A DNA stretch of 64,000 nucleotides from Eledone cirrhosa (taxonomy: Eukaryota): positions 5,270,001 to 5,334,000 of the forward strand of contig OZ024756.1 of NCBI GenBank assembly GCA_964016885.1. The letters are read 5' to 3'. Positions within the stretch are counted from its first letter, which is position 1, and each line of letters begins with the position of its first letter. Shown here one piece after another: positions 117 to 64,000 of the stretch. The notes beneath the pieces were generated by a model, which saw nothing but the letters and a program-made list of their open reading frames with translations, was not told where the DNA came from and ran no database searches. The translations under genes and the position numbers were made by a program.

Positions 117-311
117 GGCGGGGGATTGGCAGTATCGGTAGAGGGTCGGACGCCATGCTTTGACGCATAGAGTTACGGCCCTTTCCATTCTGAGTTCAAA
201 TCCAGCCGAGGTAAACTTTGCCTTTCATCCTTACGAGGTCGATAAAATAAAGTACCAGTAATACGCTGGGTAATTGCTGGCCTTGTGCCAAAAGTAGAAA
301 CAATTATTATT
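117..311 (+). mobile_element. tRNA-derived SINE with Nin-type central domain (subfamily A)
   Basis: A-box-like TGGCAGTATCGG, B-box GAGTTCAAATCC, central GCCTTTCATCCTTACGAGGTCGATAAAATAAAGTACCAG, (ATT)n tail; many copies in window. Confidence 0.85.
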
Positions 312-1616: not shown

Positions 1617-1799
1617 TTGGCAGTATCGTTAGAGGGTTGGAAGCCATGCTTTCTTGCATAGTTACGTCCCTTTACAGTCTGAGTTCAAATCCCGCCGAGG
1701 TTAACTGCCTTTCATCCCTACGGGGTCGATAAAATAAGGTACCTGTAATGTACTGGGTATTTGATGGCCTTGTGCCTAAAGTAGAAACAATTATTATTA
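1617..1799 (+). mobile_element. Nin-type SINE (subfamily B, slightly 5' truncated)
   Basis: B-box GAGTTCAAATCCC, Nin core, (ATT)n tail; diagnostic tttc.tgcatagttacgtccctttac shared with the copy at 26465. Confidence 0.85.
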
Positions 1800-12940: not shown

Positions 12941-13186
<246 letters not shown>

Positions 13187-19750: not shown

Positions 19751-19797
19751 TTCATCATTGTCAAGATCTCTTTTAGATAAATTAATTATTTTAGGAT

Positions 19798-23207: not shown

Positions 23208-24330
23208 ACGTATTTAAGAAAGCCACAACAATGCAAAGGGAAATCTCGAGGTAGGAAGTGAAATATAGATAGGAAAAACAGGTGAAAGTGAAAATTGAGA
23301 GAGACAAAGATGAAAACAAAACAAAGGTAGAAGGGTTACCGTAGTAGAGATTTAATCCCAATATTTCGGGCTCACGCCCATCAACAGGGGAAAAGTTCCA
23401 AAAGGGGGGAACAGGCTAAGCGGAGAAAGTTGTGATGTCGTTAAGACAGGAATGCCGTTATGGGGAGGAAAATATTTAAAATTTAAACGAGGGAAAGAAT
23501 GCGCGTGCGCGTGATAGGCTGTGGCAAAAGCTACTGACCAAATGGGTTAAATCAAGAGGGTGCGTTAGCGTGTGAAAGCCGTAAGATATGTGTATGTAGA
23601 TATATATATGTGTGTGTAACTGTGTGTGTATAAGTGTAAGTGTGTATATGTGTGAGTGTGTGTGTGCGTGAAAGATAGTGGGCTGTAGAAGTTGGAAATC
23701 AAAGGGTGTGAAAGGTGGTAGGTTGTAAAATATGTGTGCGTGTATAAATATAGATGTGTGTGTGTAAGCGTATGGGTATACATGTGTGTGTAACTGTGTG
23801 TGTATATGTGTGAGTGCGTTTGTGTGTGAAAGATAGTGGGCTGTAGAAGCTGGAAATCAAAGGGTGTGAAAGGTGGTAGGTTGTAAAAACATGTGTGCGT
23901 GTATAAATATAGATGTGTGTGTGTATGCGTATGGGTATGCATATACGTGCGTGTGTGTGAAGATAGCAGGCCGTAGGCTGTAAATGGTCATTATGGTTAA
24001 GTTAGCCATGTCTGCTCATTTCTCTCAGCCCGGTTGTTAAGTGGGGGTCTGAGGTTCTTAATAACAAGTGCTTCCTTTATCCTTAAGGATCCGATGCTGC
24101 GTTCAGTCGCTAGGACTGTGACCAAGGGTCTACCCTGTGGGTTTCCGCATTTAAGGATGTGTTTACGGAAGGAAGATGCGTTGGTGTTGATATGTTCCTT
24201 GATACGAACATGTAGGGATCGGATGGTGCTACCTATGTAAAACTTGTTACATTTATCGCATTGAATTTTATATACGACATAGGTGCGTAGGCAATCTGCC
24301 CCCCGTATCGGGCAGTTATCACTGACCAAT
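23208..24330 (-). mobile_element. 5'-truncated PLE (Nematis-like): GIY-YIG domain + 3' UTR/pLTR
   Basis: CPI...C...VVYKIQCDKCNKFYIGSTIRSLHVRIKEH...IKEALVIKNLRPPLN (23997..24330). Confidence 0.8.
23356..23391 (-). ncRNA. Variant hammerhead (core CTGTTGA)
   Basis: tccc CTGTTGA t gggc gtga gccc GAAA ta TT ggga. Confidence 0.55.
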
Positions 24331-24409
24331 GACCTGCACCCATCCAACTCCCCACCCTCTCCTACCACTTGTAGAGACCTATAAATACCATTTTTATTTT
24401 TTGATACCC

Positions 24410-24460
24410 AGATTCCTGATGATTTCTAATGAATGAAACAGTTCTAGTCCTGTAGAATCT
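24410..24460 (+). ncRNA. Type I hammerhead ribozyme (same as 22671..22721, opposite strand)
   Basis: agattc CTGATGA tttctaatgaat GAAA cagttctagtcctg TA gaatct. Confidence 0.8.
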
Positions 24461-25049: not shown

Positions 25050-25240
25050 AGCGGTGGATTGGCAGTATTGGTAGAGGGTCGGACGCCATGCTTTGACGCA
25101 TAGAGTTACGGCCCTTGCCATTCTGAGTTCAAATCCCGCCGAGGTTAACTTTGCCTTTCATCCTTACGGGGTCGATAAAATAAAGTACCAGTAATACACT
25201 GGGTTTTTGCTGGCCTTGTGCCTAACGTAGAAACAGTTAT
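25050..25240 (+). mobile_element. Nin-type SINE (subfamily A)
   Basis: Highly similar to 117..311. Confidence 0.85.
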
Positions 25241-26462: not shown

Positions 26463-26658
26463 TAATAATAATTGTTTCTTCTTTTGGCACAAGGTCAGCA
26501 ATTACCCAGTACGTTACTGGTACTTTATTTTATCGACCCCGTAAGGATGAAACGCAAAGTTAACCTCGACGGGATTTGAACTCAGACCGTAAAGGGACGT
26601 AACTATGCTAGAAAGCATGGCGTCCAACCCTCTACCGATACTGCCAATTCCCCGCCCT
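26463..26658 (-). mobile_element. Nin-type SINE (subfamily B)
   Basis: Reverse complement of the SINE consensus. Confidence 0.85.
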
Positions 26659-27317
26659 TTTATATTGTAATCATGTTTATACATATGTTGCATTCACATA
26701 ACGAATTCTTGCTTACTTCTACATTCGACTGTATATATTATTTTTAATAATAGTATTGTTAGCCAATGACGTTTGGGTAGTTGGATTCACTTCTCCATAC
26801 CGTATTCCATTTAACAGATAAAGCCAGAGTGTGTGTGTATAAGTATAAGTATGTGTCTATAACTGTTTGATATTTCTTCATAATACATACAGGAATCGCA
26901 AATACAATGTTATAAAAACCTTCGCTAAGTACAAATCAATACCTCCCTACGGACAATTGACGCTGCACACCAGGTCCGAACACGGAAGAGGCGAACTCCC
27001 ACTGTCATAGCCACCATCTCTCTCGCCTCCCCCCCTATCTCTCTGTATTATGAGCAAATCGGGTCCCACGTGCTGGCCGCTCCATGGCCACGGCGGACAG
27101 AATGGAGAAGGCGTTTCCCCGGGGGATGGTAAGGGAGATGCGCTAGAAGAGCCATTGCACCTCGTGAGCCTCACACCTGCGGCTAGTAAGCTCAGCGCCT
27201 ATGGAGGTAAGTAGAGGGGTAGCCCTAGGACGAAATACACCAGAAGTCTGAGGATAACAGTTGCAACTGTGAAATGTCACTCTCACAATTAGCCATCCTC
27301 ACAGTAGAAGTATAACA

Positions 27318-27775: not shown

Positions 27776-27849
27776 CAGTCATACAGCAAAAACGATAACA
27801 AAAACCAAAACAATTCTTTCCTAGAAATACAATAAAAATGTTTACATGT

Positions 27850-28050
27850 AATGATTTCTAGCATAGGCACAAGGCCAGTAATTTGGGTGAAGAGGAAAGT
27901 CGATTAAATCGACCCCAGTACGTTACTGGTACTTTATTTTATCGACCCCGTAAGGATGAAAGGCAAAGTTAACTTCGGCGGGATTTGAACTCAGACTGTA
28001 AAGGGTCGTAACTCTATGCTGAAAAGCATGGTATCCGATTCTCTACCGGT
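27850..28050 (-). mobile_element. Nin-type SINE (longer tail variant)
   Basis: Nin core plus ggggtcgatttaatcgac insert; ends ccttgtgcctatgctagaaatcatt. Confidence 0.8.
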
Positions 28051-30937: not shown

Positions 30938-31701
30938 GAAATATATATATATTTCCGTGTGTGTATATATATATATTACACACACAGAAATGTATATATA
31001 TACACACAGAAATATATATATATTTCCGTGTGTGTATATATATATATTACACACACAGAAATGTATATATATACACACAGAAATATATATACATCCCTTA
31101 GCTACTGTACTGTATCTGTTGCTATCTCTCTCTCTCTCTCTCCAGCTATCCCTCTCTTTTAGTCTGTCTGTTTCTCTCACTCTCACTCTTTCTCTTTGTA
31201 ACACACTAACATTCCTCCCCTCTATCGCTGTGACGAATGGGGAGATGGAGGAGGAGGAGGAGAGAGTCACTTCGTCACTTCACCTCTGCCTTTCTTTCTC
31301 TCCCCTCTACCTCCCTCATTACGTACAGACATTAGGGCGGTGGATTGGCAGAATCTGTAGAGTGTCGGACACCATGCTTCATAGCATGGAGTTACGTCCC
31401 TTTACGGTCTGAGTTCAAATACCGCCGAGGTTAACTTTGCCTTTCATCCTCCCGGGGTCGATAAAATAAAGTACCAGTAATGTACTGGGTGATTGCTGGC
31501 CTTGTGCCAAAAGTAGAAACAATTATTAGAAACATTGCTTCATGTTTACCTACCGTTTTCAAACTTTACACATGTGATACTTATGTTTCAGGGAGTGTTC
31601 TGAGCAAAATAAATTTCAAAGTTTCAATGCCCTAAGGACCGCATTAGGTGATTTAGCGATCTCTCTCTATAATTCTTAGTCTTTCTCTTTTTAGATAGAT
31701 A
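30405..31701 (-). mobile_element. Non-autonomous Helitron containing a minisatellite and a SINE
   Basis: 5' TCTATCTAAAAAG; 3' ...cagacagcgaaattg CTGG|T (CTRR); internal tandem duplication 30440..30660 and acacacagaaatatat minisatellite. Confidence 0.6.
31334..31528 (+). mobile_element. Nin-type SINE inserted in a Helitron
   Basis: Full SINE consensus with (ATT) tail. Confidence 0.85.
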
Positions 31702-34939: not shown

Positions 34940-35161
34940 ATTGGTTTCTGAGTTAGGCACAAGGCCAACAATTTGGAGGAGGGGAAAGTCGACCAAACCG
35001 AGCCCAGTGCATTACGGGTACTGTATTTTATAGACCCCATAGAGATTTAAGGCAAAGCTAACCTCGGCAGGATTTGAAATCAGATCTTAAAGAGGCGTAA
35101 CCCTATGTTATATAGCATGCTCCCCCTCCGACACTCTACCGATACTGCAATCCACCACCCC
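34940..35161 (-). mobile_element. Nin-type SINE (diverged)
   Basis: Reverse complement of the SINE consensus. Confidence 0.75.
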
Positions 35162-35816: not shown

Positions 35817-35862
<46 letters not shown>

Positions 35863-36106
35863 TTTTCTTTATTAACCACAAGGGTTTACATAAAGTAGAC
35901 ATTAAGGACAGTACAGGACAATACAGGACGGTACAAATGGGCATTTCTGCGTATAAAAAAAAACAGAGGATGAAATAAAATAACAAAGAAAAATTCCCCA
36001 ATAGGGGGGAGACTTCCGAGGGACATTTGTGGAGAAAGCCCATTAAAAGACCACAGTGGCCCTGACCACCAGGGCAAGTGCCCTCTCCCAGTTTTCCACC
36101 TTTAAT

Positions 36107-39100
36107 TTACAGACACATACTCAGAGAAGGCCCATTCATTCGGGCCATACTTGCTTCTCTCACCCATCTTTCAACAAAATGCTGGGAAGAGAGCACTTCC
36201 CTCTCTACCCTGACTTTCCTTTTCAGATGAAATTTGAAAAAGTTAATCAGGGCATCACCAAAGAGGTAAGTGCTCGTCTTCAACCCTTTCAAACGTGTCC
36301 ACCATACTATCTCTTTCGCCATGGCCACCAGACAGATAAAAACTGCCTGCCCTTCCCGGCTAAAGGAAGAGGGCGGGGCAATCCTCACGATGGACTCAGC
36401 TGATAGCTGGATCCGTCCTACACGTGACAGCAGGTATTCGACATAAACCCACAAGTCAGCAATGCTCGGACACTGGACGAGTGCGTGCAGGACGGTTTCG
36501 TCGCCCTGTGCGCATCTCGGACATGCCCGGCTGACGGCACCTCCATGCCTGTAAAGTTTATCCCGAACTGGCAAAGCACCCCGGTAGCACTGCCAGGCCA
36601 GAGATTTCTGGAAGTTGTCCATAGGCCCCGGCCCGAAAGTCCTTCCGAAGAGATTGGCTAGTTGATTTTCGTCGACGCCTAGAGTTTCTCCAAGTACGTC
36701 GTCGCTCTTCCCCTCCACTAATCCCCTATAGAACGCCAAGGTGGAGTTTCCACCGATCACATTGCCCGATTGGTCGAGGGCTGTGAGCGCCTGAAGACAT
36801 TCCAGTCTCCAAGCGCTCCCTCTCGGTCTTCGCTTGACCCAGGACTGCAGCTCCATCAAGGAGACGAGCTGGGGAAAAACGTGTCTAGCAAACGGCGACC
36901 ACACCTGATCACCGTCGAGGAAGAGGTGGAGATGTCGTAGCCTGAGCGCGTGTCTGCGCATCATCATCCACGGCATGCCCAGCCCTCCACGTAGCGGGTG
37001 TTGACAGCAGATGGACCGCCTGACCATCGGAGCGCGTCCCTTCCAAAAGAAGCGAAAGAGCAAACGCTCCAGCGCAGTCAGGCGGGGCTTAGGACAAGGT
37101 ACGACGGTCAGGCGGTATGTGATGACGGACGCGATGTACGCGTTAGCCACCTCCGCTCGACCTTTCAGGGATAGCTTCCTCTCGGCCCATTTCTGGGTGA
37201 AAGAAGCCACCCTGCTCGTCACCTCGTCCCAGTTTTTGTCCGTCTGGAGGTCTGGACCGAACCAGACCCCTAGCAATTTAACCGGTCCGTCCGTCTAGAG
37301 CCCGACGACGCTGTTGGACGGCATGGACCTGCCTCTCCAGGTGCCGAGCTGCAGGCCCACTGACTTTTCCTGGTTGATCATTGCTCCTGTCACCGCTTCG
37401 TATTCTCCTAGTGTAGTGCCGATCGCCTCGATGTGTTTGGCGTTCGACACCACTACGGTGACATCGTCGGCATATGCTGACACGGATCTTCCGCATCCTA
37501 GTTCGCGCGGGACCCCCCTCAACGTCTCCAGTTTGTGCAGTAATGGCTTGAGAGTCAATACGTACAATAGGGACGAGAGGGGACATCCTTGGCGGACCGA
37601 GCGCATGATGTTGAACGGTTCCGAAAGGTGACCGTTCACTCTCACTACAGAGCAGATGTCGCTGTGCATGGCAGCGATCCAGCCTCTGAAGACGGGCCCA
37701 AAGCCAGCCGCCCTCAGGACTGCCGCTAGGTAACGATGGTTGACCCTATCGAAGGCTTTCGACTGATCTAAATTGATCAAAGACCCACCCGTGCCAGGTT
37801 CCCTAGCTACCCTCTCTACGATGTATCGCATGAGGTGGAGGTTGTCGTGAATGGATCTGTCGGGAATGGCGCATGTCTATGCCTCTCCCACCAGACCATC
37901 AACGACAAGCGCCAACCTCTTTGCTAGCACCTTGGCCAAAATCTTGAACTCTGTGTTTAGCAGAGTTATGGGCCTAAAATTATCTATGTTATCACCCTTG
38001 TTCGGATCCTTTCTCAGCAGCGCCACCGCTCCTCGGCTCACAGAGCTGGGAATTCTCCCGTTCTGTTGCCAGTTGCAGTAGACGTCCGCCAAGAGGCCTC
38101 CGAACAAGTTTGGCATTTGTACGTAAAGTTCATAGGGCAGACCATCTAAACCAGGCGATTTACCCCTTGTGCAACTCGTCATTGCATCCCGTACTTCAGC
38201 GGTTGTTATCGGCTTTTCGCAACACTCCGTCTCAGTGGCCGAAAGCCGCGGCAGTCCGTCGAGGTAGACACTAAAGTCCATCCCTCGATCCGGCCCGCCA
38301 CTGCCCCCGAACAGTTGAGCGAAGTGTCGCTGAAAAGCTTCACACATTTGCCCGGGATCGAATAGCATGCGCCCGTCGTGGTCCACCAAAGACCGGATCG
38401 TGGCTTTGTTGCCACGACGCGCCTCCGCCACTCGGGCCCATTGAACGGCTTTCGTCCCCTCGTGTCTGAGAGCACGCACCCTAGCTCTGACAACGCAGCC
38501 TTCGTGCTTTGCATTGAAGAATTGGTCAAGGGCCAATTTCGCCGCAAGTACGTCGGTCGCGATGCCTTTGCTAAGCGCCTCATCTAATTTTCTAACTAAT
38601 TCTCCCTCTGCTCTATTTTTCTCTATTGCTAAAGTCTTACTAAACCTAATGGACTCTATTCTAATTGCTCTTTTCAGAGCAAACCACCACTTGTTGTTGA
38701 CGATGGCCCCCGTCAACGCCCGCTTAACTAGTTCGCTAATCCGGTCTCTGTAGGCCTTGCGCGCTGGTAAGGATGCGTTTAGCTTCCAGTAGCCGGGTCC
38801 TCGTCTATGAAGCCTATCTAAGTCAAGCACACAGATCACGAATTTGTGGTCCGTGTAGCTGACTATCTTGAATTGTGGACAGCCTATGCTAGACCTATCT
38901 ATTTCCCTACAAAATACCCTATCTAGATATGATCTGGATGACCCTATGCGATTTGTCCAAGTCCACATTGGTACATTCGGGAAATCCATTCAGTACCTGT
39001 CAGACAGGTCAAAACGTCTGAGCAGGTTGGTGAGACTCTTGCACCCTCCTTCCCTATCCACTAATCCCACACAATCCCAGCGTGCATCTAAGATCCCGTT

Positions 39101-39526
39101 CCAGTCGCCCACTAACATTAAAGAGCGGGACGTTCCAAGAAAGGTCTCCAGACGCCGGAAGAAATCAGGCCGCCCTGCTCCTGTCGGGGCATAGACGGCC
39201 AGTAACCTGAAAGCTTGGCCGTCTCCGCTGGTCACGTCCAGCACCACCAACTTACCTTCTGGGTCCTGGAAGATGGCCCGTATGGCAAGATCCAAACCTC
39301 TCCGAAAAAGCACAGCAACTCCTCCCTCCGATCCCGGACGGCTGGGAGATGCGTACACATCGTAGCCGCCGAAGATCGGTGCGAAAGCCTGTGCTTCGGA
39401 GATTCTGGTCTCGCTGATGGCCACTACATCTATGTTTAGTGACCTGAGGTCGTTGAGCAGGTGGCCCTGCTTCCATGACGACCCCAAGCCACGCGCATTT
39501 ATGCTGCCTATTCTGAGTGAGGTCAT
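36107..39526 (-). pseudogene. Tx1 ORF2 (APE + RT + C-terminal Cys/His domain); one frame with three premature stops
   Basis: SINARG, ISET, GDWN, YLDRV, TDHK, WKLN, KSPGLDG, FRPITLLN, DQSKAFDRV, RQGCPLS, YADD, CPRC...HALVQC; stops at 38990, 37877 and 37295. Confidence 0.92.
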
Positions 39527-39572
39527 GTTGAAAAGGAGTGGAAAAGATGGAAAAGACCACTTACCTTACTTC

Positions 39573-41527
39573 TCATAGGGGAAGGACGGTTTTTCCATCC
39601 TTTTCACTGCTTGTGGCCTCCTCAGGAAGGATGTCCTTATAAATCCTCCTGGAGAGTGCTTGTCGGAAGTCTCCGATGTCTTTGGGGAATTTTTGTTTTA
39701 GTGTCATGTACGTTTTCTTTGTGATGCGAGTGATTTGTATGTGTGGAGGTGGTGTGAATTTTGGGGTTGTTGTGTAGTCTTTTTCTGTGATGCTGGTGTT
39801 GTGTTGGATGTAGTGTAATAATTGCTTGTTGTTCAAAAGTAATGCTGTGTAGTGTGTATCGTTTTGGTTGTTTTGTTTTGTTTGCGTTTGTTGTGGGTTT
39901 GTTTCTGTTTCGCATTTTGGTGACTTTTGTGGTGTAGGTGATGGTGGTGTTGGGGTTAATGATGGTGATGGTGTTGGTGTTTGGGTTGATGGGGTTGGTG
40001 ATGCTGGTGAGGATGGTGGCATATCTGTCCTAACTTTTTTGTTTCTTAATTTATTTGTTTCCCTCTGTATTTTGTTTTTGGAGGGGGAAGGAAGAGAATT
40101 TTTTCTTTTTTGGTTTCTTTTTTTTTTTCGGATATCGTTTCCCACTCCTCGTCGTCACAATCTGTCTCCAGTTGTGATAGGCCGGGGAATGGAAAATCCT
40201 CCACAGCCGTTAGTTTTGGTTGTGGCGTGGTGGATGGTGTAGGCGATGGTGCTAGTTCTGAAGCGTTGGGTGGTGGTGGTGTTGGTTTTGCTGGTGGTGG
40301 TGGTGGTGTTGGTTTTGCTACTGTTGCTGGGGTTGTTGCTGTTATAGTTGCTTCTGTTGTTGCTGCTACAGTTGTTGCTGCCATCTCTGCTACTGGTGGT
40401 GTTGATGGTTGTGTCACTGGGGTGGGTAGGAGAGGTGGCCTCAACCTTTTAGCCTGGGGGCAGAAAGCCCTTAGGTGGGTTCCTTCACCACAAACGACAC
40501 ACCTAGGTCTTCTGCCCTCGACAATTACCGTGAGGTGGCTGCTGTCAGTGAGGTCTATTACCTCTGGGATCTCCTCAATGCTTTTTTGGTCCGCTTGGAT
40601 CAGGAGCTCCATCCCAGATCCGGACCAGTTCTCCTGCTTTTCTTTTGCTATTGCTATTATTTTCGTGTTGGCTTCGATGCCGGTGAGGACAGCCGCTATT
40701 AGCCAGGGAATTTCGATGGCCGGTGGAACGTGGGTCACCCTGATCTTTACGAGTCTCTGGCCACAATAGCTTGGGACGAGTGTGAAGTCGTCACTTCTTA
40801 ATGGGGCCATGGAGTGTCCTCTAGCCTCCTCTGGTGTTTCAAAGAACACGTCCACGGTTCCATACTTTTGCCCAAGTCTGATGTGGGTTTTTCTTGCCCA
40901 CACATGTCCCAAAGCTTTTTGGATTTGGGACTCGGATGCCCGTTCCACTCGGCGCGATTTTACATTTATTGTTCTATACGACACGGTGCATAGGCGCCGA
41001 TGCTCCATTTTATTAGGTGGGGGGGGGGGGCTGACCCTGTACCCATCTTTCTTTACCATTTGTTTGGCATTTTCTAAATCCTCCTGAGTTACCGTAAATG
41101 CTTCGAACTGTTTTGCTACTCTGGCGAAACTGAGGGGGGGTTTTATAATGTCATTGTTGTTGTTGTTGCTATCGTTAATATTAATTTTAGTTTCAATTGT
41201 GGTGGTGGTGTCGTCAGTCGTCTTTGGTGGGGAAGAGTCCATTTTGCTTGATTTCATTTCGACATCACGAGTTAATTTATTTTTTTCTTCTTTTGTTTCT
41301 GTTGTCGCGGTGGTGGTGGTGGTGGTGGTGGTGGAGGCTTTAACACCTGCAGTCATTGGTAATGGCGGGAAATGAATGTCTGCCTGAGACAAATTTAAAA
41401 TATTGCTAGTGCTTATATTTTTTTTTGTGTTGGCAAACGTAGTAACATTTACAATGGTGGTGTCGGTGTGAGGTGTTAATTTGTGAGGAAGGCTTTCAGC
41501 TGCTTCGTGCAGAGGTGAATTAGCCAT
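39573..41527 (-). pseudogene. Tx1 ORF1 (RRM-like region, CCHC knuckle, Pro/Thr-rich tail) with a frameshift at an A11 run
   Basis: ATG at 41527 (MANSPLH), EGRRPRCVVCGEGTHLRAFCP; frame change at 40118..40128. Confidence 0.8.
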
Positions 41528-41734
41528 TTTTTTGAAAGAAATTTTTTGATAATAATAAACGTTTAAATTTGGGGCACAAGGCCCCAATCTTTTTGGGTGT
41601 CCTTTTCGGAAAACAATGTATGTGCGCTTATAAACAGTTAACAATAAAATTTTCCATAAATGACAATTTTTAACAAACGGAAATAACAAACCTTTGCGGA
41701 GCTCACGATGATACGATTTACTACGTAGGTCGCC

Positions 41735-41778
<44 letters not shown>

Positions 41779-41779
<1 letters not shown>

Positions 41780-42305
41780 CAATTTACCACATTCTGAGAA
41801 GTGGTATGAGCATAAGCCAGAGGCGGTGATAGAAAACGATCAGGTGAAGGTGCTGTGGGATTTTAGGATACAGACGGACAAGAAACTGGAACACAATAGA
41901 CCTGACCTGGTGGTTGTGGACAAAGAAAAAAGATCGTGCCTGATTGTGGATGTGGCCTGCCCATTCGACACGAGAGTGCAAGAGAAGGAGAGGGAGAAAA
42001 TTAATCGATACCAGGACTTAAAGTGGGAGGTAAAAAGGATTTGGAACTGCCATGAAGTCAAAGTGATCCCGATTGTCATAGGCGCACTAGGGACTATCTC
42101 AAAAAGTTTCCAGGGATGGTTAAAGAAAATTGGCCCCTTCACGCTTTTTGGAACGCTTCAAAAGGCATGCTTGCTGGGAACAGCAAGAACCCTCCGATAC
42201 GTCCTGAATATCTGAGGCTGTAGGTAGTGGCTTGATATTCATTTCAACAAACTTTCCAGTTAACTAACATCAATGACTGAGACTCAAAGAGTAATAATAA
42301 TAATA
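41779..42305 (+). mobile_element. 5'-truncated Dong/R4-clade retrotransposon (restriction-like endonuclease C-terminus)
   Basis: WYEHKPE...LWDFRIQTD...NRPDLVV...IVDVACP...EKINRYQDL...PIVIGALG...KACLLGTA; (TAA)n on both sides, the known Dong target type. Confidence 0.88.
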
Positions 42306-42600: not shown

Positions 42601-43086
42601 TTGATAGATAGAGTGGGGGTTAGAGAGAGACAGATAAATAGATAGGTAGAGAGAGAGTGAGAGAGACAGAGAGAGAGAAGGTGAGAAAGAGAGAGAGAGG
42701 GAGCAGATGAGAGGGAACATTGATGATTCATATTTAAACATATCAAGAAGTTATTATAGAAGTGGAGCAGGAAATGAGTGCATATAGGGGGAGGGAGGTT
42801 TGTGAAGAGAGTAACGAAGGATGTGAGAAGGAGAGAGTTGGAGACAGAGAAGGAGAAACTGGTCGGGAAATAGTCTGTCATAGGAACATGTAGATAATAC
42901 GAGAGGGAGAGGGGGGTTAGAGGTAGGTAGAGGTGTGGGGAGTGAGAGGTGTGAAGAGCGAGTGGTAGGGACAGGTGTGGGGAACGAGTGGTAGGTAAAG
43001 GGAGGGTGGGGTGACATATAGGGAGTTTGGGGAGGTCACCAGAGTGGAGAGCGAGAGAAAATGTGGGTTAAAATAGAAGGATATAC

Positions 43087-43188
43087 GTCGTTGGAAATAT
43101 GTTGCAGTGTTGTCTAGCCCTTGGCTATTGGAATACAGCATTCCATTCCATTGGAAAGATGGAGTTTGGAGTTTGATTGAAATAATAT
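43087..43188 (-). other. Candidate 102-nt phase 1-1 exon next to the 52-bp satellite
   Basis: AG/GT boundaries; open frame (D)IISIKLQTPSFQWNGMLYSNSQGLDNTATYFQR. Confidence 0.3.
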
Positions 43189-43195
43189 CTTTAAT

Positions 43196-46100
43196 AGGGT
43201 AATAGAGAGTGAAAATATGATGGGATGAGAGAGTAAGGAGAGGGTGAAGGGGAGTAGAGAGTGAAAATATGATGGGATGAGAGAGTAAGGATAGGGTGAA
43301 GGGGAGTAGAGAGTGAAAATATGATGGGATGAGAGAGTAAGGAGAGGGTGAAGGGGAGTAGAGAGTGAAAATATGATGGGATGAGAGAGTAAGGAGAGGG
43401 TGAAGGGGAGTAGAGAGTGAACATATGATGGGATGAGAGAGTAAGGAGAGGGTGAAGGGGAGTAGAGAGTGAAAATATGATGGGATGAGAGAGTAAGGAG
43501 AGGGTGAAGGGGAGTTGAGAGTGAACATATGATGGGATGAGAGAGTAAGGAGAGGGTGAAGGGGAATAGAGAGTGAAAATATGATGGGATGAGAGAGTAA
43601 GGAGAGGGTGAAGGGGAGTAGAGAGTGAACATATGATGGGATGAGAGAGTAAGGAGAGGGTGAAGGGGAGTAGAGAGTGAAAATATGATGGGATGAGAGA
43701 GTAAGGAGAGGGTGACGGGGAATAGAGAGTAATCATATGATGGGATGAGAGAGTTAGGAGAGGGTGAAGGGGAATAGAGAGTAATCATATGATGGGATGA
43801 GAGAGTTAGGAGAGGGTGAAGGGGAATAGAGAGTGAAAATATGATGGGATGAGAGAGTAAGGAGAGGGTGAAGGGGAGTAGAGAGTGATCATATGATGGG
43901 ATGAGAGAGTTAGGAGAGGGTGAAGGGGAATAGAGAGTAATCATATGATGGGATGAGAGAGTAAGGAGAGGGTGATGGGGAGTTGAGAGTAATCATATGA
44001 TGGGATGAGAGAGTAAGGAGAGGGTGAAGGGGAATAGAGAGTGATCATATGATGGGATGAGAGAGTAAGGAGAGGGTGATGGGGAGTTGAGAGTGATCAT
44101 ATGAGTGGATGAGAGAGTAAGGAGAGGGTGAAGGGGAGTTGAGAGTGATCATATGAGTGGATGAGAGAGTAAGGAGAGGGTGAAGGGGAATAGAGAGTAA
44201 TCATATGATGGGATGAGAGAGTAAGGAGAGGGTGATGGGGAGTTGAGAGTAATCATATGATGGGATGAGAGAGTAAGGAGAGGGTGAAGGGGAATAGAGA
44301 GTGAAGATATGATGGGATGAGAGAGTAAGGAGAGGGTGATGGGGAGTTGAGAGTAATCATATGAGTGGATGAGAGAGTAAGGAGAGGGTGAAGGGGAGTT
44401 GAGAGTAATCATATGAGTGGATGAGAGAGTAAGGAGAGGGTGATGGGGAGTTGAGAGTGATCATATGAGTGGATGAGAGAGTAAGGAGAGGGTGATGGGG
44501 AGTTGAGAGTAATCATATGAGTGGATGAGAGAGTAAGGAGAGGGTGATGGGGAGTTGAGAGTGATCATATGAGTGGATGAGAGAGTAAGGAGAGGGTGAA
44601 GGGGAGTTGAGAGTGATCATATGAGTGGATGAGAGAGTAAGGAGAGGGTGATGGGGAGTTGAGAGTGATCATATGAGTGGATGAGAGAGTAAGGAGAGGG
44701 TGAAGGGGAATAGAGAGTAATCATATGATGGGATGAGAGAGTAAGGAGAGGGTGATGGGGAGTTGAGAGTAATCATATGATGGGATGAGAGAGTAAGGAG
44801 AGGGTGAAGGGGAATAGAGAGTGATCATATGATGGGATGAGAGAGTAAGGAGAGGGTGATGGGGAGTTGAGAGTAATCATATGATGGGATGAGAGAGTAA
44901 GGAGAGGGTGAAGGGGAATAGAGAGTGATCATATGATGGGATGAGAGAGTAAGGAGAGGGTGATGGGGAGTTGAGAGTAATCATATGATGGGATGAGAGA
45001 GTAAGGAGAGGGTGAAGGGGAATAGAGAGTGATCATATGATGGGATGAGAGAGTAAGGAGAGGGTGATGGGGAGTTGAGAGTAATCATATGATGGGATGA
45101 GAGAGTAAGGAGAGGGTGAAGGGGAGTAGAGAGTGATAATATGATGGGATGAGAGAGTAAGGAGAGGGTGAAGGGGAATAGAGAGTGAAAATATGATGGG
45201 ATGAGAGAGTAAGGAGAGGGTGAAGGGGAGTAGAGAGTGATCATATGATGGGATGACAGAGTAAGGAGAGGGTGAAGGGGAGTAGAGAGTGATCATATGA
45301 TGGGATGAGAGAGTAAGGATAGGGTGAAGGGGAGTTGAGAGTGAACATATGATGGGATGAGAGAGTAAGGAGAGGGTGAAGAGGAGTAGAGAGTGAAAAT
45401 ATGATGGGATGAGAGAGTAAGGAGAGGGTGAAGGGTAATAGAGAGTGAAAATATGATGGGATGAGAGAGTAAGGAGAGGGTGAAGGGGAGTAGAGAGTGA
45501 TCATATGATGGGATGAGAGAGTAAGGATAGGGTGAAGGGGAGTTGAGAGTGAACATATGATGGGATGAGAGAGTAAGGAGAGGGTGAAGAGGAGTAGAGA
45601 GTGAAAATATGATGGGATGAGAGAGTAAGGAGAGGGTGAAGGGTAATAGAGAGTGAAAATATGATGGGATGAGAGAGTAAGGAGAGGGTGAAGGGGAGTA
45701 GAGAGTGATCATATGATGGGATGACAGAGTAAGGAGAGGGTGAAGGGGAGTAGAGAGTGATCATATGATGGGATGAGAGAGTAAGGAGAGGGTGATGGGG
45801 AGTTGAGAGTAATCATATGATGGGATGAGAGAGTAAGGAGAGGGTGAAGGGGAATAGAGAGTGAAGATATGATGGGATGAGAGAGTAAGGAGAGGGTGAA
45901 GGGGAATAGAGAGTGATCATATGATGGGATGAGAGAGTAAGGATAGGGTGAAGGGGAGTTGAGAGTGAACATATGATGGGATGAGAGAGTAAGGAGAGGG
46001 TGAAGAGGAGTAGAGAGTGAAAATATGATGGGATGAGAGAGTAAGGAGAGGGTGAAGGGTAATAGAGAGTGAAAATATGATGGGATGAGAGAGTAAGGAG

Positions 46101-48668
46101 AGGGTGAAGGGGAGTAGAGAGTGATCATATGATGGGATGACAGAGTAAGGAGAGGGTGAAGGGGAGTAGAGAGTGATCATATGATGGGATGAGAGAGTAA
46201 GGATAGGGTGAAGGGGAGTTGAGAGTGAACATATGATGGGATGAGAGAGTAAGGAGAGGGTGAAGGGGAGTAGAGAGTGAAAATATGATGGGATGAGAGA
46301 GTAAGGAGAGGGTGAAGGGTAATAGAGAGTGAAAATATGATGGGATGAGAGAGTAAGGAGAGGGTGAAGGGGAGTAGAGAGTGATCATATGATGGGATGA
46401 GAGAGTAAGGAGAGGGTGAAGGGGAGTTGAGAGTGAACATATGATGGGATGAGAGAGTAAGGATAGGGTGAAGGGGAGTTGAGAGTGAACATATGATGGG
46501 ATGAGAGAGTAAGGAGAGGGTGAAGGGGAGTAGAGAGTGATCATATGATGGGATGAGAGAGTAAGGAGAGGGTGAAGGGGAGTAGAGAGTGAACATATGA
46601 TGGGATGAGAGAGTAAGGATAGGGTGAAGGGGAGTTGAGAGTGAACATATGATGGGATGAGAGAGTAAGGAGAGGGTGAAGAGGAGTAGAGAGTGAAAAT
46701 ATGATGGGATGAGAGAGTAAGGAGAGGGTGAAGGGTAATAGAGAGTGAAAATATGATGGGATGAGAGAGTAAGGAGAGGGTGAAGGGGAGTAGAGAGTGA
46801 TCATATGATGGGATGAGAGAGTAAGGAGAGGGTGAAGGGGAATAGAGAGTAATCATATGATGGGATGAGAGAGTTAGGAGAGGATGATGGGGAGTTGAGA
46901 GTAATCATATGATGGGATGAGAGAGTAAGGAGAGGGTGAAGGGGAGTTGAGAGTGATCATATGATGGGATGAGAGAGTAAGGAGAGGGTGAAGGGGAGTT
47001 GAGAGTAATCATATGATGGGATGAGAGAGTAAGGAGAGGGTGAAGGGGAGTAGAGAGTGAAAATATGAGTGGATGAGAGAGTAAGGAGAGGGTGAAGGGT
47101 AATAGAGAGTGAAAATATGATGGGATGAGAGAGTAAGGAGAGGGTGAAGGGGAGTAGAGAGTGATCATATGATGGGATGAGAGAGTAAGGAGAGGGTGAA
47201 GGGGAGTTGAGAGTGAAAATATGAGTGGATGAGAGAGTAAGGAGAGGGTGAAGGGTAATAGAGAGTGAAAATATGATGGGATGAGAGAGTAAGGAGAGGG
47301 TGAAGGGGAGTAGAGAGTGATCATATGATGGGATGAGAGAGAAAGGAGAGGGTGAAGGGGAGTTGAGAGTGAAAATATGAGTGGATGAGAGAGTAAGGAG
47401 AGGGTGAAGGGTAATAGAGAGTGAAAATATGATGGGATGAGAGAGTTAGGAGAGGGTGAAGGGGACTAGAGAGTGATAATATGATAGGATGAGAGAGTAA
47501 GGAGAGGGTGAAGGGGAGTAGAGAGTGATCATATGATGGGATGAGAGTGTAAGGAGAGGGTGAAGGGGAGTAGAGAGTGATAATATGATGGGATGAGAGA
47601 GTAGGGAGAGGGGGAAGGGGAGTAGAGAGTGATCATATGAGTGGATGAGAGAGTTAGGAGAGGGTGAAGAGGAGTTGAGAGTGAAAATATGATGGGATGA
47701 GAGAGCAAGGAGAGGGTGATGGGGAGTTGAGAGTGATCATATGATGGGATGAGAGTGTAAGGAGAGGGGGAAGGGGAGTTGAGAGTGATCATATGATGGG
47801 ATGAGAGAGTTAGGAGAGGGTGAAGGGGAGTTGAGAGTGAAAATATGATGGGATGAGAGAGTAAGGAGAGGGTGAAGGGGAGTAGAGAGTGATAATATGA
47901 TGGGATGAGAGAGTAAGGAGAGGGTGAAGGGGAGTTGAGAGTGATCATATGATGGGATGAGAGAGTTAGGAGAGGGTGAAGGGGAGTAGAGAGTGATAAT
48001 ATGATGGGATGAGAGAGTAAGGAGAGGGTGAAGGGGAGTTGAGAGTGATCATATGATGGGATGAGAGTGTAAGGAGAGGGGGAAGGGGAGTTGAGAGTGA
48101 TCATATGATGGGATGAGAGAGTTAGGAGAGGGTGAAGGGGAGTAGAGAGTGATCATATGATGGGATGAGAGAGTAGGGAGAGGGTGAAGGGGAGTAGAGA
48201 GTGAATATATGATGGGATGATAGAGTAAGGAGAGGGTGAAGGGGAGTAGAGAGTGATCATATGATGGGATGAGAGAGTAAGGAGAGGGTGAAGGGGAGTA
48301 GAGAGTGAAAATATGATGGGATGAGAGAGTAGGGAGAGGGGGAAGGGGAGTTGAGAGTGATCATATGATGGGATGAGAGAGTAAGGAGAGGGTGAAGGGG
48401 AGTAGAGAGTGAAAATATGATGGGATGAGAGAGTAGGGAGAGGGGGAAGGGGAGTTGAGAGTGATCATATGATGGGATGAGAGAGTAAGGAGAGGGTGAA
48501 GGGTAATAGAGAGTGATCATATGATGGGATGAGAGTGTAAGGAGAGGGTGAAGGGGAGTTGAGAGTGATCATATGATGGGATGAGAGAGTAAGGAGAGGG
48601 TGAAGGGTAATAGAGAGTGATCATATGATGGGATAAGAGTGTAAGGAGAGGGGGAAGGGGAGTAGAGA
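43196..48668. repeat. 52-bp purine-rich satellite (~105 copies)
   Basis: gagagtgaaaatatgatgggatgagagagtaaggagagggtgaaggggagta. Confidence 0.97.
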
Positions 48669-50520: not shown

Positions 50521-50865
50521 CGTGCGCTGACGTAGAAGAACAGGTTTCCTGCTTAGTCCCCTACTTAGGAAGGTTTGCTCCCATTCAGCGCTGGTATGTA
50601 GAGTCTTTAAATCACACACGGAAATAACACAAACATACTTTGGCCTTAAGACCAAAAGACTATAAGATTTGTAGACCTATTAAATCGTACAATTTGATTC
50701 ATTGTTTTGTCTTAACACAGACGAGACCCTTCAGTTTTTCTGTCCTTACAATTCTCCCCTGGTACTAAACAGGGTCTCTCATCCCTGGGTTAGATGCTCT
50801 CGTATATATATAAATGTATATAATTAAATGTGGGCCCACATGAACAGAAATTGGTGAAAGCTGAA

Positions 50866-53800
50866 GTATAGTGTGGTTTAGTAGAGACTGTATAGTGTAG
50901 TTTAGTGCAGACTGTATAGTGTGGTTTAGTAGAGACTGTATAGTGTGGTTTAGTAGAGATTGTATAGTGTGGTTTAGTAGAGATTGTATAGTGTGTTTTA
51001 GTAGAGACTATATGGAGTCGTTTAATAGAAACTATAGTTGGTTTACTAGAGACTATATAGTGTGGTTTAGTGGAGACTATAGTATGGTTAACTAGAGATT
51101 GTATAGTGTGGTTTAGTGGAGACTATAGTATGGTTTAGTAGACATTGTATAGTGTGGTTTAGTAGGGATTGTATAGTATGGTTTAGTAGAGACTGTATAG
51201 TGTGGTTTATTAGAGACTATAGTGTAGTTTAGTAGAGATTGTATAGTATGGTTTAGTAGAGACTGCATAGTGTGGTTTAGTAGAGACTATATAGGGTAGT
51301 TTAGTAGAGACTGTATAGTATAGTTTAGTAGAGACACTATAGTGTGGTTTAGTAGAGACTGTATAGTGTGGTTTAGTAGATACTGTATAGTGTGGTTTCG
51401 TAGAGACTATAGTGTGGTTTAGTCGAGATTGTATACTGTGGTTTAGTAGAGACTATAGTGTAGTTTAGTGTAGACTATAGTGTGGTTTAATAAAGACAAT
51501 AGTGTGGTTTAGTGGAGACTATAGTATGGTTTAATAGAGACTATATAGTATGGTTTAGTAGAGACTATAGTGTGGTTTAGTGGAGATTATAGTGTGGTTT
51601 AGTAGAGACTATATAGTGTGGTTTAGTGGAGACTGTATAGTGTGGTTTAGTAGAGACTATATAGTGTGGTTTAGTGGAGACTGTATAGTGTGGTTTAGTG
51701 GAGACTGTACAGTGTGGTTTAGTAGAGACTATATAGTGTGATTTAGTGGAGACTGTATAGTATGGTTTAGTGGAGACTGTATAGTGTGGTTTAGTAGGGA
51801 CTATAGTGTGGTTTAGTGGAGACTGTATAGTGTGGTTTAGTAGAGACTGTATATAGTGTTTTAGTAGAGACTGTATTGTGTGGTTTATTAGAGGCTATAG
51901 TGTAGTTTAGTGGAGACTATAGTGTGGTTTAGTAGAGACTGTATAAAGTGGTTTATTAGAGGCTATAGTGTAGTTTAGTGGAGACTATATAGTGTAGTTT
52001 AGTGGAGAGTGTATAGAGTGGATTATTAGAGACTATATAGTGTGGTTTAATAGAGACTATAGTGTCTTTTAGTAGAGACTCTAGTGTGGTTTAGTAGAGA
52101 CTGTATAGTGTGGTTTAGTGGAGACTATAGAATGGTTTACTAGAGACTGTATAGTGGGGTTTAGTGGAGACAGTAAAGTGTGGTTTAGTGGAGACTATAT
52201 AGTGTGGTTTAGTAGAGACAGTGTAGAGCGGTTTAGTAGAGACTATATAGTATGGTTTAGTGGAGACTGTGTAGTGTGTTTTAGTGTTGACTGTATAGTG
52301 TGGTTTAGTAGAGACTGTATAGTATGGTTTAGTAGAGACTACAGTGTGGTTTGGTAGAGATTGTATATTATGGTTTAGTAGAGACTATATAGTGTGGTAT
52401 AGTAGATACTATAGTGTGGTTTAGTAGAGACTGCATAGTGTGGTTTAGTAGAGACTGTATAGTGTGGTTTAGTAGAGACAGTGTAGAGCGGTTTAGTGGA
52501 GACTGTGTAGTGTGTTTTAGTGTTGACTGTATAGTATGGTTTAGTGTTCACTGTATAGTGTGGTTTAGTAGAGACTGTATAGTGTGGTTTAGTAGAGACT
52601 ATATAGTGTGGTTTAGTAGAGACTATATAGTGTGGTTTAGTAGAGACTATAGTGTGGTTTAGTAGAGATTGTATATTATGGTTTAGTAGAGACTATATAG
52701 TGTGGTTTAGTAGATACTATAGTGTGGTTTAGTAGAGACTGCATAGTGTGGTTTAGTAGAGACTGTATAGTGTGGTTTAGTAGAGACTATAGTGTTCTTT
52801 ACTAGAAACTATATAGTGTGGTTTAGTGGAGACTATAGTGTCTTTTAGTATAGACTCTAGTGTGGTTTAGTATAGACTGTATAGTGGGGTTTAGTGGAGA
52901 CAGTAAAGTGTGGTTTAGTGGAGACTATATAGTGTGGTTTAGTAGAGACAGTGTAGAGCGGTTTAGTAGAGACTATATAGTATGGTTTAGTGAAGACTGT
53001 GTAGTGTGTTATAGTGTTAACTGTATAGTGTGGTTTAGTAGAGACTGTATAGTGTGGTTTAGTAGAGACTGTATAGTGTGGTTTAGTGGAGACTGTATAG
53101 TGTGGTTTAGTAGAGACTGTATAGTGTGGTTTAGTAGATACTGTATAGTATGGTTTAGTGGAGACTGTGTAGTGTGGTTTAATAGAGACTATATAGTATG
53201 GTTTAGTGGAGACTGTGTAGTGTGGTTTAGTGTTGACTGTATAGTGTGGTTTAGTAGAGACTGTATAGTGTGGTTTAGTGGAGACTGTATAGTGTGGTTT
53301 AGTAGATACTGTATAATATGGTGTAGTACAGACACTATAGTGTGGTTTAGTAGAGACTGTATAGTGTGGTTTAGTAGAGACTGTATAGTGTGGTTTAGTA
53401 GAGACTGTATTGTGTGGTTTAGTAGAGACTATAGAGTGTGGTTTAGTAGAGACTATATAGCCTGGTTTAGTAGAGACTATATAGTGTGGTTTAGTAGAGA
53501 CTGTATAGTGTGGTTTAGTAGAGACTGTATAGTGTGGTTTAGTGGAGACTATAGTGTGGTTTAGTAGATACTGTATAGTGTGGTTTAGTGGAGACTATAT
53601 AGTGTGGTTTAGTAGAGACTGTTAGTGTGGTTTAGTAGAGACTATAGTGTTGTTTAATAGAGACTTTATAGTGTGGTTTAGTGGAGACTGTATAGTGTAG
53701 TTTAGTGGAGACTATAGTAGGTTTACTAGAGAGAGTAGAGTGTGGTTTAGTGGAGACTGTATAGTATGGTTTAGTAGAAACTTGATAGTGTGATTTAGTG

Positions 53801-56800
53801 GAGACTATATAGTGTGGTTTACTAGAAACTGTATAGTGTGGTTTAGTAGAGACTATAGTATGGTTTAGTGGATACGGTATAGTGTGGTTTAGTAGAGACT
53901 GTATAGAGTGGTTTAGTAGAGACTGTATAGTATGTTTTAGTAGAGATTATATAGTGTGGTTTAGTAGAGACTATATAGTGCGCTTTACTAGAGACTGTAT
54001 AGTGTGGTTTAGTGGATACTGTATAGTGTGGTTTAGTGGAGACTATAGTATGGTTTAGTGGATACGGTATAGTGTGGTTTAGTAGAGACTGTATAGTGTG
54101 GTTTAGTAGAGACTGTATAGTGTGGTTTAGTGGAGACTGTATAGTGTGGTTTACTGGAGACTGTGTAGTGTGGTTTAGTGTTGACTGTATAGTGTGGTTT
54201 AGTAGAGACTGTATAGTGTGGTTTAGTGGAGACTGTATAGTGTGGTTTAGTAGATACTGTATAATATGGTGTAGTACAGACACTATAGTGTGGTTTAGTA
54301 GAGACTGTATAGTGTGGTTTAGTAGAGACTGTATAGTGTGGTTTAGTAGAGACTGTATTGTGTGGTTTAGTAGAGACTATAGAGTGTGGTTTAGTAGAGA
54401 CTATATAGCCTGGTTTAGTAGAGACTATATAGTGTGGTTTAGTAGAGACTGTATAGTGTGGTTTAGTAGAGACTGTATAGTGTGGTTTAGTGGAGACTAT
54501 AGTGTGGTTTAGTAGATACTGTATAGTGTGGTTTAGTGGAGACTATATAGTGTGGTTTAGTAGAGACTGTTAGTGTGGTTTAGTAGAGACTATAGTGTTG
54601 TTTAATAGAGACTATATAGTGTGGTTTACTAGAAACTGTATAGTGTGGTTTAGTAGAGACTATAGTATGGTTTAGTGGATACGGTATAGTGTGGTTTAGT
54701 AGAGACTGTATAGAGTGGTTTAGTAGAGACTGTATAGTATGTTTTAGTAGAGATTATATAGTGTGGTTTAGTAGAGACTATATAGTGTGGTTTCGTAGAG
54801 ACTATAGTGTGGTTTAGTCGAGATTGTATACTGTGGTTTAGTAGAGACTATAGTGTAGTTTAGTGTAGACTATAGTGTGGTTTAATAAAGACAATAGTGT
54901 GGTTTAGTGGAGACTATAGTATGGTTTAATAGAGACTATATAGTATGGTTTAGTAGAGACTATAGTGTGGTTTAGTGGAGATTATAGTGTGGTTTAGTAG
55001 AGACTATATAGTGTGGTTTAGTGGAGACTGTATAGTGTGGTTTAGTAGAGACTATATAGTGTGGTTTAGTGGAGACTGTATAGTGTGGTTTAGTGGAGAC
55101 TGTACAGTGTGGTTTAGTAGAGACTATATAGTGTGATTTAGTGGAGACTGTATAGTATGGTTTAGTGGAGACTGTATAGTGTGGTTTAGTAGGGACTATA
55201 GTGTGGTTTAGTGGAGACTGTATAGTGTGGTTTAGTAGAGACTGTATATAGTGTTTTAGTAGAGACTGTATTGTGTGGTTTATTAGAGGCTATAGTGTAG
55301 TTTAGTGGAGACTATAGTGTGGTTTAGTAGAGACTGTATAAAGTGGTTTATTAGAGGCTATAGTGTAGTTTAGTGGAGACTATATAGTGTAGTTTAGTGG
55401 AGAGTGTATAGAGTGGATTATTAGAGACTATATAGTGTGGTTTAATAGAGACTATAGTGTCTTTTAGTAGAGACTCTAGTGTGGTTTAGTAGAGACTGTA
55501 TAGTGTGGTTTAGTGTAGACTATAGAATGGTTTACTAGACACTGTATAGTGGGGTTTAGTGGAGACAGTAAAGTGTGGTTTAGTGGAGACTATATAGTGT
55601 GGTTTAGTAGAGACAGTGTAGAGCGGTTTAGTAGAGACTATATAGTATGGTTTAGTGGAGACTGTGTAGTGTGTTTTAGTGTTGACTGTATAGTGTGGTT
55701 TAGTAGAGACTGTATAGTATGGTTTAGTAGAGACTACAGTGTGGTTTGGTAGAGATTGTATATTATGGTTTAGTAGAGACTATATAGTGTGGTATAGTAG
55801 ATACTATAGTGTGGTTTAGTAGAGACTGCATAGTGTGGTTTAGTAGAGACTGTATAGTGTGGTTTAGTAGAGACAGTGTAGAGCGGTTTAGTGGAGACTG
55901 TGTAGTGTGTTTTAGTGTTGACTGTATAGTATGGTTTAGTGTTCACTGTATAGTGTGGTTTAGTAGAGACTGTATAGTGTGGTTTAGTAGAGACTATATA
56001 GTGTGGTTTAGTAGAGACTATATAGTGTGGTTTAGTAGAGACTATAGTGTGGTTTAGTAGAGATTGTATATTATGGTTTAGTAGAGACTATATAGTGTGG
56101 TTTAGTAGATACTATAGTGTGGTTTAGTAGAGACTGCATAGTGTGGTTTAGTAGAGACTGTATAGTGTGGTTTAGTAGAGACTATAGTGTTCTTTACTAG
56201 AAACTATATAGTGTGGTTTAGTGGAGACTATAGTGTCTTTTAGTATAGAGTCTAGTGTGGTTTAGTATAGACTGTATAGTGGGGTTTAGTGGAGACAGTA
56301 AAGTGTGGTTTAGTGGAGACTATATAGTGTGGTTTAGTAGAGACAGTGTAGAGCGGTTTAGTAGAGACTATATAGTATGGTTTAGTGAAGACTGTGTAGT
56401 GTGTTATAGTGTTAACTGTATAGTGTGGTTTAGTAGAGACTGTATAGTGTGGTTTAGTAGAGACTGTATAGTGTGGTTTAGTGGAGACTGTATAGTGTGG
56501 TTTAGTAGAGACTGTATAGTGTGGTTTAGTAGATACTGTATAGTATGGTTTAGTGGAGACTGTGTAGTGTGGTTTAATAGAGACTATATAGTATGGTTTA
56601 GTGGAGACTGTGTAGTGTGGTTTAGTGTTGACTGTATAGTGTGGTTTAGTAGAGACTGTATAGTGTGGTTTAGTGGAGACTGTATAGTGTGGTTTAGTAG
56701 ATACTGTATAATATGGTGTAGTACAGACACTATAGTGTGGTTTAGTAGAGACTGTATAGTGTGGTTTAGTAGAGACTGTATAGTGTGGTTTAGTAGAGAC

Positions 56801-63545: not shown

Positions 63546-64000
63546 TATATATGTCTTATGACAATGTTATATATGATGTAGTTATGACAATGGTATATAT
63601 GTCTTATGACAATGTTACATATGTCTTATGACAATGGTATATGTCTTATGACAATGTTATATATGTCTTATGACAATGGTATATGTCTTATGACAATGTT
63701 ATATATGTCTCATGACAATGTTATATGTCTTATGACAATGTTATATATGTCTTATGACAATGTTATATGTCTTATGACAATGTTATATATGTCTTATGAC
63801 AATGTTATATGTGTTATGACAATGTTATATATGTCTTATGACAATGTTATATGTCTTATGACAATGTTATATATGTCTTATGACAATGTTATATATCTCT
63901 TATGACAATGTTATATATGTCTTATGACAATGTTATATGTCTTATGACAATGTTACATACATCTTATGACAATGTTATATATGTCTTATGATAATGGTAC
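63546..64000. repeat. 24/22-bp satellite (gtcttatgacaatgttatat[at]), runs off the window
   Basis: Direct inspection. Confidence 0.95.

Follow-up and report, generated by a model that had tools for sequence, protein, structure and literature searches.

A Tx1 retrotransposon lineage that targets (ATT)n microsatellites and may mobilise an octopod SINE through a shared, predicted tail hairpin

Introduction

Which retrotransposon copies the short interspersed nuclear elements (SINEs) of octopods is a question raised by a 64,000-nucleotide (nt) stretch of Eledone cirrhosa DNA (contig OZ024756.1, positions 5,270,001 to 5,334,000 of assembly GCA_964016885.1; hereafter the window), in which a retrotransposon of the Tx1 clade and the tails of several SINE copies carry the same terminal motif. 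SINEs make up ~11.6% of the Octopus vulgaris assembly and have been discussed as drivers of octopus genome change, and the parts of these two papers covered here do not name their partner long interspersed nuclear element (LINE) (PMC13282606, PMC12988792); this and all other literature is cited for the parts consulted. From sequence comparison and structure prediction, we consider it probable that an ATT-type Tx1 lineage mobilises the SINE by way of a shared tail hairpin, given that the predicted hairpin and the ATT tail are common to both and that the enzymes of the lineage would thus be likely to copy the SINE.

Results

A motif shared by Tx1 and SINE tails is predicted to form a covarying hairpin

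The original prediction held that the 3' end of the Tx1 element and the SINE tails have CCTTGTG-N8-AGAAA in common, and this stood. Eight exact matches occurred in the window against 0.26 expected (100 shuffles), namely the Tx1 3' end (35864-35883, minus strand) and seven SINE tails, comprising all six copies quoted originally and a seventh at 26475-26494. Within the motif, CCTTGTG supplies the loop, CUUGU, and the C-G pair that closes it in a predicted hairpin of 3-4 base pairs, whose stem reads AACC/GGTT in the window family (Tx1a), GGCC/GGCC in the sister family Tx1b, TGCC/GGCA in an ATCT-type Tx1 family, and TGGC/GCCA or TGGC/GCCT in the SINE. In a 12-row alignment the loop CTTGT was present in 10 rows, 83.3% of cells were paired, and three of the four pairs had changed on both sides, giving a covariation of 0.371 that none of 500 shuffles equalled; structures slid along the alignment were at most 54.2% paired. 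The second stem pair was C-G in eight of nine Tx1 rows and G-C in all three SINE rows, the hairpin appeared in six of seven Tx1 or SINE minimum-energy folds, and the main SINE haplotypes kept the loop and the three inner pairs. As a predicted hairpin, the motif is therefore kept, with compensating stem changes, among Tx1 copies and across six Tx1 families and the SINE, in agreement with the conservation that the proposed pairing called for. As in stringently recognised SINE-LINE pairs, the 3'-terminal sequence is shared at the same position, over a short stretch (~26 nt), and its predicted stem-loop shows compensatory changes, within 3-4 pairs of which the outer is often broken.

When the hairpin was scanned for, the traced non-SINE carriers with ATT or ATCT tails were Tx1 families, and a match within a CR1 open reading frame (ORF) was judged to be chance. 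Sister Tx1 families (~67% ORF2 identity; loci L035, L173, L208, L108, L092, L211, and L335) kept the hairpin and differed in the tail that followed it, with ATCT runs at three of eight ends, one or two TATCT units at three, and neither at two.

Sister Tx1 families match the SINE tail beyond chance

The final 26 nt of three SINE tails were scored, taking the best of the three, against six Tx1 ends and eleven non-Tx1 end stretches, drawn from three CR1 families (one at two places), one L2-like family, two RTE families, and four Dong or restriction-like endonuclease (RLE) families. Tx1c scored 13, Tx1b 12, Tx1d 11, Tx1f 8, Tx1e 7, and Tx1a 6; non-Tx1 scores ranged from -5 to 7, with the CR1 of locus L227 at 7 and the rest at 4 or less, and the hairpin was found in none of the eleven stretches. 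The null comprised 2442 random ATTAT-anchored 26-mers, left after 101 of 2543 had been masked by upstream context. Ten of these scored at least 6, six at least 7, and five at least 9, all five being clipped SINE tails, and no unmasked non-SINE carrier of the hairpin structure occurred among the 2442 sites. Compared with random 26-mers, the sister Tx1 families match the SINE tail in sequence well beyond chance, and Tx1a only modestly above it. A LINE with a better match would have spoken against the pairing: none of the sampled RTE, CR1, L2-like, and Dong/RLE ends exceeded the ATT-tailed sister Tx1 families, whereas the CR1 of L227 exceeded Tx1a.

Several candidate partners were set aside on their 3' ends. 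That of RTE-BovB differed (30 loci); the CR1 of L227, despite its score, had an (AAATG)n tail in each of 10 copies and no such hairpin; Dong/RLE families had other tails or the opposite orientation. Copies of the CR1 family in the window continued, after TTCAAAGTTA repeats, into (TA)n in 28 of 30 cases, into (TATG)n in one, and into neither in one. The ATT-tailed L2-like family (2524 candidates, 93-100% identical) had a different hairpin and, in ten truncated copies, no ATT-started duplication; we excluded 23 of its 30 loci, which represented a single repeated block in near-identical form.

The window CR1 itself (9717-12945, plus strand; L171-L200) has an open frame of 1045 amino acids and returned 15390 protein-search candidates. 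All 150 scored copies were 100% identical over 149 amino acids, and most of the visible 5' junctions fell within runs of TA, which gives it the appearance of a highly active CR1 associated with (TA)n. Nineteen copies of the L2-like 3' end at 124.8-126.3 Mb of one contig (L263-L281), all facing the same way and 100% identical across 293 nt, are probably a tandem segmental repeat, and other L2-like copies (L321-L334) had a duplicated 3' end.

The Tx1 lineage targets (ATT)n arrays

That this Tx1 lineage targets (ATT)n, as originally proposed, is close to certain. All 30 full-length Tx1a 5' ends picked with a 5'-junction query adjoined 5-29 ATT units. Among 30 copies picked on mid-ORF1, and hence blind to the junction, 28 reached the 5' end unbroken and all 28 adjoined long ATT runs, the other two being interrupted. 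In Tx1b (2159 candidates), 15 of the 19 5' ends found had at least four ATT units, and 8 of 12 5'-truncated Tx1a copies lay in arrays of at least four units (counted by eye). No poly(A), defined as A6 within 60 nt, was present at any of 137 Tx1 3' ends. These flank samples represent top-scoring young copies, and duplications of full-length Tx1 are unmeasurable inside pure ATT arrays. The RNA of a truncated Tx1a cannot carry upstream repeats. Within these samples, the array flanks of full-length and truncated copies and the lack of A6 establish array targeting and the absence of poly(A). Microsatellite-specific Tx1 elements have been delimited by more than 20% of flanks being of one repeat type (PMC4494074), and the proportions here (28/28 and 30/30 full-length, 8/12 truncated) lie above this threshold.

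At L097, L100, L338, L339, and L340, Tx1 copies stood in tandem, head to tail, with nothing but ATT runs between them; the copies belonged to one family or to different ones. An RTE-BovB 3' untranslated region (UTR) with GT, TA, and ATT tracts (L111-L140) had been entered in its ATT tract by Tx1 (L130, L138, L027) and by the SINE (L115, L124), and offers a ready empty-site reference.

The SINE inserts at ATTATT

SINE duplications were called in 37 of 77 full-length copies from loci not selected for an ATT array. They spanned 9-22 nt (median 16) and started with ATTAT in 23 and with ATTATT in 19 of the 37; mismatched pairs, the control for false calls, gave 3 of 384. Three truncated Tx1 copies were flanked by ATT-started duplications (18, 22, and 22 nt), one of them clearly unique. 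SINE and Tx1 agreed in strand, ATT start, and compatible duplication length, and differed in array preference. The target of the SINE is ATTATT and not arrays, and the array preference implied for both elements did not extend to it (1 of 37 sites).

The SINE measures ~185-215 nt and accounted for 97 segments in a 600-kb random sample, at least 2.4% of that sample. Eleven of 24 random copies had a neighbour at 96% identity or more, by which the SINE, like Tx1, is young. Its tail has 0-3 ATT units (two in 30 of 77 copies, three in 5, more in none), so that the (ATT)n first ascribed to it is not a long run. The SINE head has A-box- and B-box-like words by eye, and neither ARAGORN nor Rfam made a transfer RNA (tRNA) call on it; the labels A/B box, Dong-like, and L2-like are applied here on inspection. 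The SINE was originally labelled Nin-type. Three SINE-body words had no matches in the searched supplement parts of two papers (PMC4758252, PMC4824008), and two Lottia Nin rows showed no likeness by eye; the label is unsupported and unverified, and we do not file the SINE as Nin.

The window holds a full-length, young Tx1 element

The retrotransposon at this locus (Table 1) was rightly called a Tx1: its domains, phylogeny, and shared ends identify it as a full-length member of a young family. It has the domain composition of the Tx1 clade, an ORF1 followed by an ORF2 with apurinic/apyrimidinic endonuclease (APE), reverse transcriptase (RT), and C-terminal zinc-binding domains, and ORF2 of this copy is broken by three stop codons (38992, 37879, and 37297). 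In an RT tree of 16 rows, which did not include animal L1, the Tx1 families joined the alligator "transposon TX1 149 kDa" protein and fish and turtle proteins with support of 99/98, leaving a green-algal protein, CR1, and RTE outside. The best solved-structure match was human L1 ORF2 (E 8e-53), and the best named homologue was an Argonauta hians protein with 74% identity across the RT region. A first look at the genome returned 589 and 1835 Tx1a candidates; the scored copies were 98-100% identical, and many genomic copies had the same 5' and 3' ends at 97-99% identity, so that the family is young. Contigs of three runs (X2, X6, and X7) contained the Tx1 3' end, which is uninformative on transcript ends. 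The pure (TAA)n reported at both junctions, without poly(A), was recovered as (TAA)14 at 35819-35860 and 41737-41778; the array at the 5' junction is shared with a 5'-truncated Dong/R4-like piece on the plus strand (41779-42291).

Table 1. Coordinates of the Tx1 element, its neighbour, and the SINE copies in the window
Feature	Position	Strand	Basis or remark
Tx1-clade non-LTR retrotransposon Tx1a, full-length, ~5.9 kb	35862..41734	minus	Shared ends in many copies, domains, homologues, tree
Tx1a ORF1, 493 amino acids, open frame	40046..41527	minus	No significant Pfam family
Tx1a ORF2, 1140 codons in one frame	36107..39526	minus	Pfam: APE endonuclease (PF03372), RT (PF00078), zf-RVT (PF13966)
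Tx1a 3' UTR	35862..36106	minus	
Predicted Tx1a terminal hairpin	35874..35886	minus	AACC/GGTT stem with CTTGT loop, then AATAAAGAAAAC and the ATT run
Tx1a 3' (ATT)n run	35817..35861	minus	Tail and/or target array
Tx1a 5' (ATT)n array (target)	41735..41778	minus	Common to the neighbouring Dong-like piece
Dong/R4-like element, 5'-truncated, ending (TAA)4	41779..42303	plus	Neighbour, not part of Tx1; RLE C-terminus by eye, label inferred
SINE copy, short form	117..308	plus	Tail stem TGGC/GCCA
SINE copy, short form	1617..1798	plus	Clipped 5' end
SINE copy, short form	25050..25240	plus	Within (TA)n run
SINE copy, short form	26465..26660	minus	5' limit approximate; absent from the earlier list
SINE copy, long form	27848..28050	minus	5' limit approximate
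SINE copy, short form	31334..31528	plus	
SINE copy, long diverged form	34940..35160	minus	5' limit approximate

The Dong/R4-like piece had no Pfam match. Elsewhere, Dong/R4-like elements of at least two families lay in the same arrays as Tx1 but faced the other way, in many cases with the two tails together (L004, L009, L012, L016, and L022). A shared unidentified sequence adjoined (CTT)n/(GAA)n runs at L032, L059, L107, and L164, and could represent the 5' end of a further element that targets microsatellites. The window also contained Penelope-like pieces (13269-14584, 17564-19891, and 23997-24425; GIY-YIG matches in the last two) and long tandem arrays at 42900-48600 and 50800-63900, seen as repetitive frames, with ~52-nt units followed by short-unit arrays with kilobase higher-order repeats.

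Discussion

How would a Tx1 lineage copy the SINE? Under the reading that we favour, ORF2 would bind the hairpin loop CUUGU, the Tx1 endonuclease would nick the AAT strand, and the AUU tail would pair with the freed end and prime reverse transcription, in cis on Tx1 RNA and in trans on SINE RNA; binding, nicking, and priming are modelled here on stringent SINE-LINE recognition (PMC3472496, PMC4824008). The SINE would have gained its Tx1 3' end long ago, and one ATT-type Tx1 family or several may now serve it, the sister families being likelier than Tx1a. Its short tail of about two units may permit minimal ATTATT sites, with the LINE favouring arrays; the looser SINE sites might alternatively reflect less strict targeting in trans, or the action of a Tx1 family that is older or escaped sampling.

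Several observations weigh against such mobilisation. At the insertion sites, 40 of 77 SINE copies yielded no duplication call, and two of the three Tx1 duplications were mostly pure repeat. SINE sites with at least four ATT units (1/37) were no more frequent than among background ATTAT sites (164/2857; p 0.72) and far less frequent than among truncated Tx1a copies (8/12; Fisher p 9e-6). At the tail, Tx1a was the weakest match of the six Tx1 families, one point below the CR1 of L227 when sequence alone is considered. The random sample of LINEs was partial (600 kb of 3.0 Gb), so that families with fewer than ~15,000 ends could escape it and a lower-copy, better-matching LINE is possible. The hairpin has only 3-4 pairs, and its outer pair fails to form in 7 of 12 rows as well as in the SINE haplotype seen most often (GCCT 33, GCCA 14, of 77); one SINE copy does not fold it, and z-scores were only -0.01 to -2.4. 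Since the structure was drawn from the same related sequences on which covariation was tested, the alignment favours it. Duplications that start with the tail repeat also arise with RTE partners, in which a T stretch lies ~10 nt before the duplication (PMC6007223), and they therefore do not single out Tx1.

This last point, and the dissimilarity of SINE and Tx1a sites, would suit copying by an unsampled non-Tx1 LINE, such as another RTE, with a closer 3' end, the likeness to Tx1 then being chance or convergence. In the annotation of a related octopus, 13 RTE families and 13 CR1 families are given as recently active (PMC13282606), more than were sampled here, and one CR1 end matched the SINE tail at 16 of 26 positions without gaps. 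We nevertheless regard this as unlikely: the T stretch was not clear in the 37 SINE sites (T 0.16 at -10; 0.49-0.57 at -9/-8), neither of the two RTE families shared its 3' end with the SINE, this hairpin was absent from the families seen (two of RTE, three of CR1, one L2-like, and four of Dong/RLE), all of which except the L2-like ended in other repeats, and the 2442 anchored sites yielded no unmasked non-SINE carrier of the structure. Alternatively, the tail may be of Tx1 origin and the SINE may now be copied by whichever LINE has an ATT tail, the young L2-like family for example, through relaxed recognition of the AUU repeat alone. This would explain why most SINE copies no longer keep the outer stem pair, and a family of that kind exists at high identity. 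It is nonetheless quite improbable, as none of ten truncated L2-like copies (by eye; one in a tandem repeat) had an ATT-started duplication at the 5' junction, against the 9-22-nt duplications of 37 in 77 SINEs, and the main SINE haplotypes retain the loop and inner pairs.

tRNA-type SINEs are expected to be transcribed by RNA polymerase III. This bears on the view that the motif is a signal for 3'-end formation and not an ORF2 binding site, in which case it would say little on partnership. AATAAA does stand right after the stem in Tx1 rows; the SINE, however, lacks AATAAA and still keeps loop, stem, and GAAA, and as an expected polymerase III transcript it would need no such signal, making this explanation very improbable. 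Mobilisation by an ATT-type Tx1 lineage remains the reading that we prefer.

In eels, the L2-clade LINE UnaL2 reportedly recognises, through its protein, a stem-loop and short tandem-repeat tail shared with UnaSINE1, which is said to have been demonstrated experimentally; the Eledone arrangement resembles it in stem-loop and repeat tail, here as a prediction and in the Tx1 rather than the L2 clade. The closest parallels among L1-clade LINEs are the stringent pairs of maize/sorghum and Chlamydomonas, where three SINEs have L1 tails and the described cases are monocot and algal (PMC3472496). These share with ours an L1-group 3' hairpin with conserved loop, variable stem, and compensatory changes, whereas here the LINE is an animal Tx1 and the shared stretch is ~26 nt.

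Among Tx1 elements, Kibi, Koshi, and crocodilian families occupy (TC)n, (TTC)n, (TTCC)n, and (TTTC)n (PMC4494074, PMC3812793). Like them, Tx1a is a Tx1-type APE-RT element lying in a microsatellite in fixed orientation; it differs in its target, (ATT)n, and has no poly(A), and because of this target we do not file it as Kibi or Koshi. In that literature TAA was attributed only to Dong, of the R4 clade (PMC3812793). Dong-like elements occupy the same TAA/ATT microsatellite, and even the same array in our window, and differ in their restriction-like endonuclease, opposite orientation (ending in TAA), and lack of a hairpin match.

The pairing of a Tx1 with a SINE was originally put forward as one not known to have been described, which holds in part. 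Crocodilian SINEU families have been linked to Tx1-Mar by their target; they have small nuclear RNA heads and poly(A) tails, and no LINE with the SINEU-1 3' end was found (PMC4494074). As proposed for SINEU, of which two of three families show weaker target preference, Tx1 would move the Eledone SINE; what connects the two here is a predicted hairpin that both have at the 3' end, together with an ATT tail, and the SINE head is putatively of tRNA type. The literature covered (including PMC5804259, PMC3747384, PMC3531059, and PMC8967140) yielded neither a tail hairpin common to a Tx1 and a SINE, nor an octopus SINE-Tx1 shared tail, nor an (ATT)n Tx1; entries of Repbase, Dfam, and SINEBase, outside this scope, may name the SINE or its partner.

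A wider proposition, which we advance only tentatively and hold to be doubtful as yet, is that an animal L1-group (Tx1) lineage with stringent CUUGU-hairpin recognition drives octopod SINE expansion, with the target set largely by RNA-DNA pairing of the tail. If so, the hairpin would be kept while the tail swaps between ATT and ATCT, long-tailed LINE RNA would go to arrays and short-tailed SINE RNA to any ATTATT, and target choice would be determined in part by the RNA tail. Hairpin, tail repeat, and endonuclease would form a small system whose parts could be exchanged individually. If a Tx1 with a defined 26-nt recognition element is the partner, the engine behind octopus SINEs would have a name, and the question of an ancestral stringency in L1-group elements (PMC3472496) would gain an animal example.

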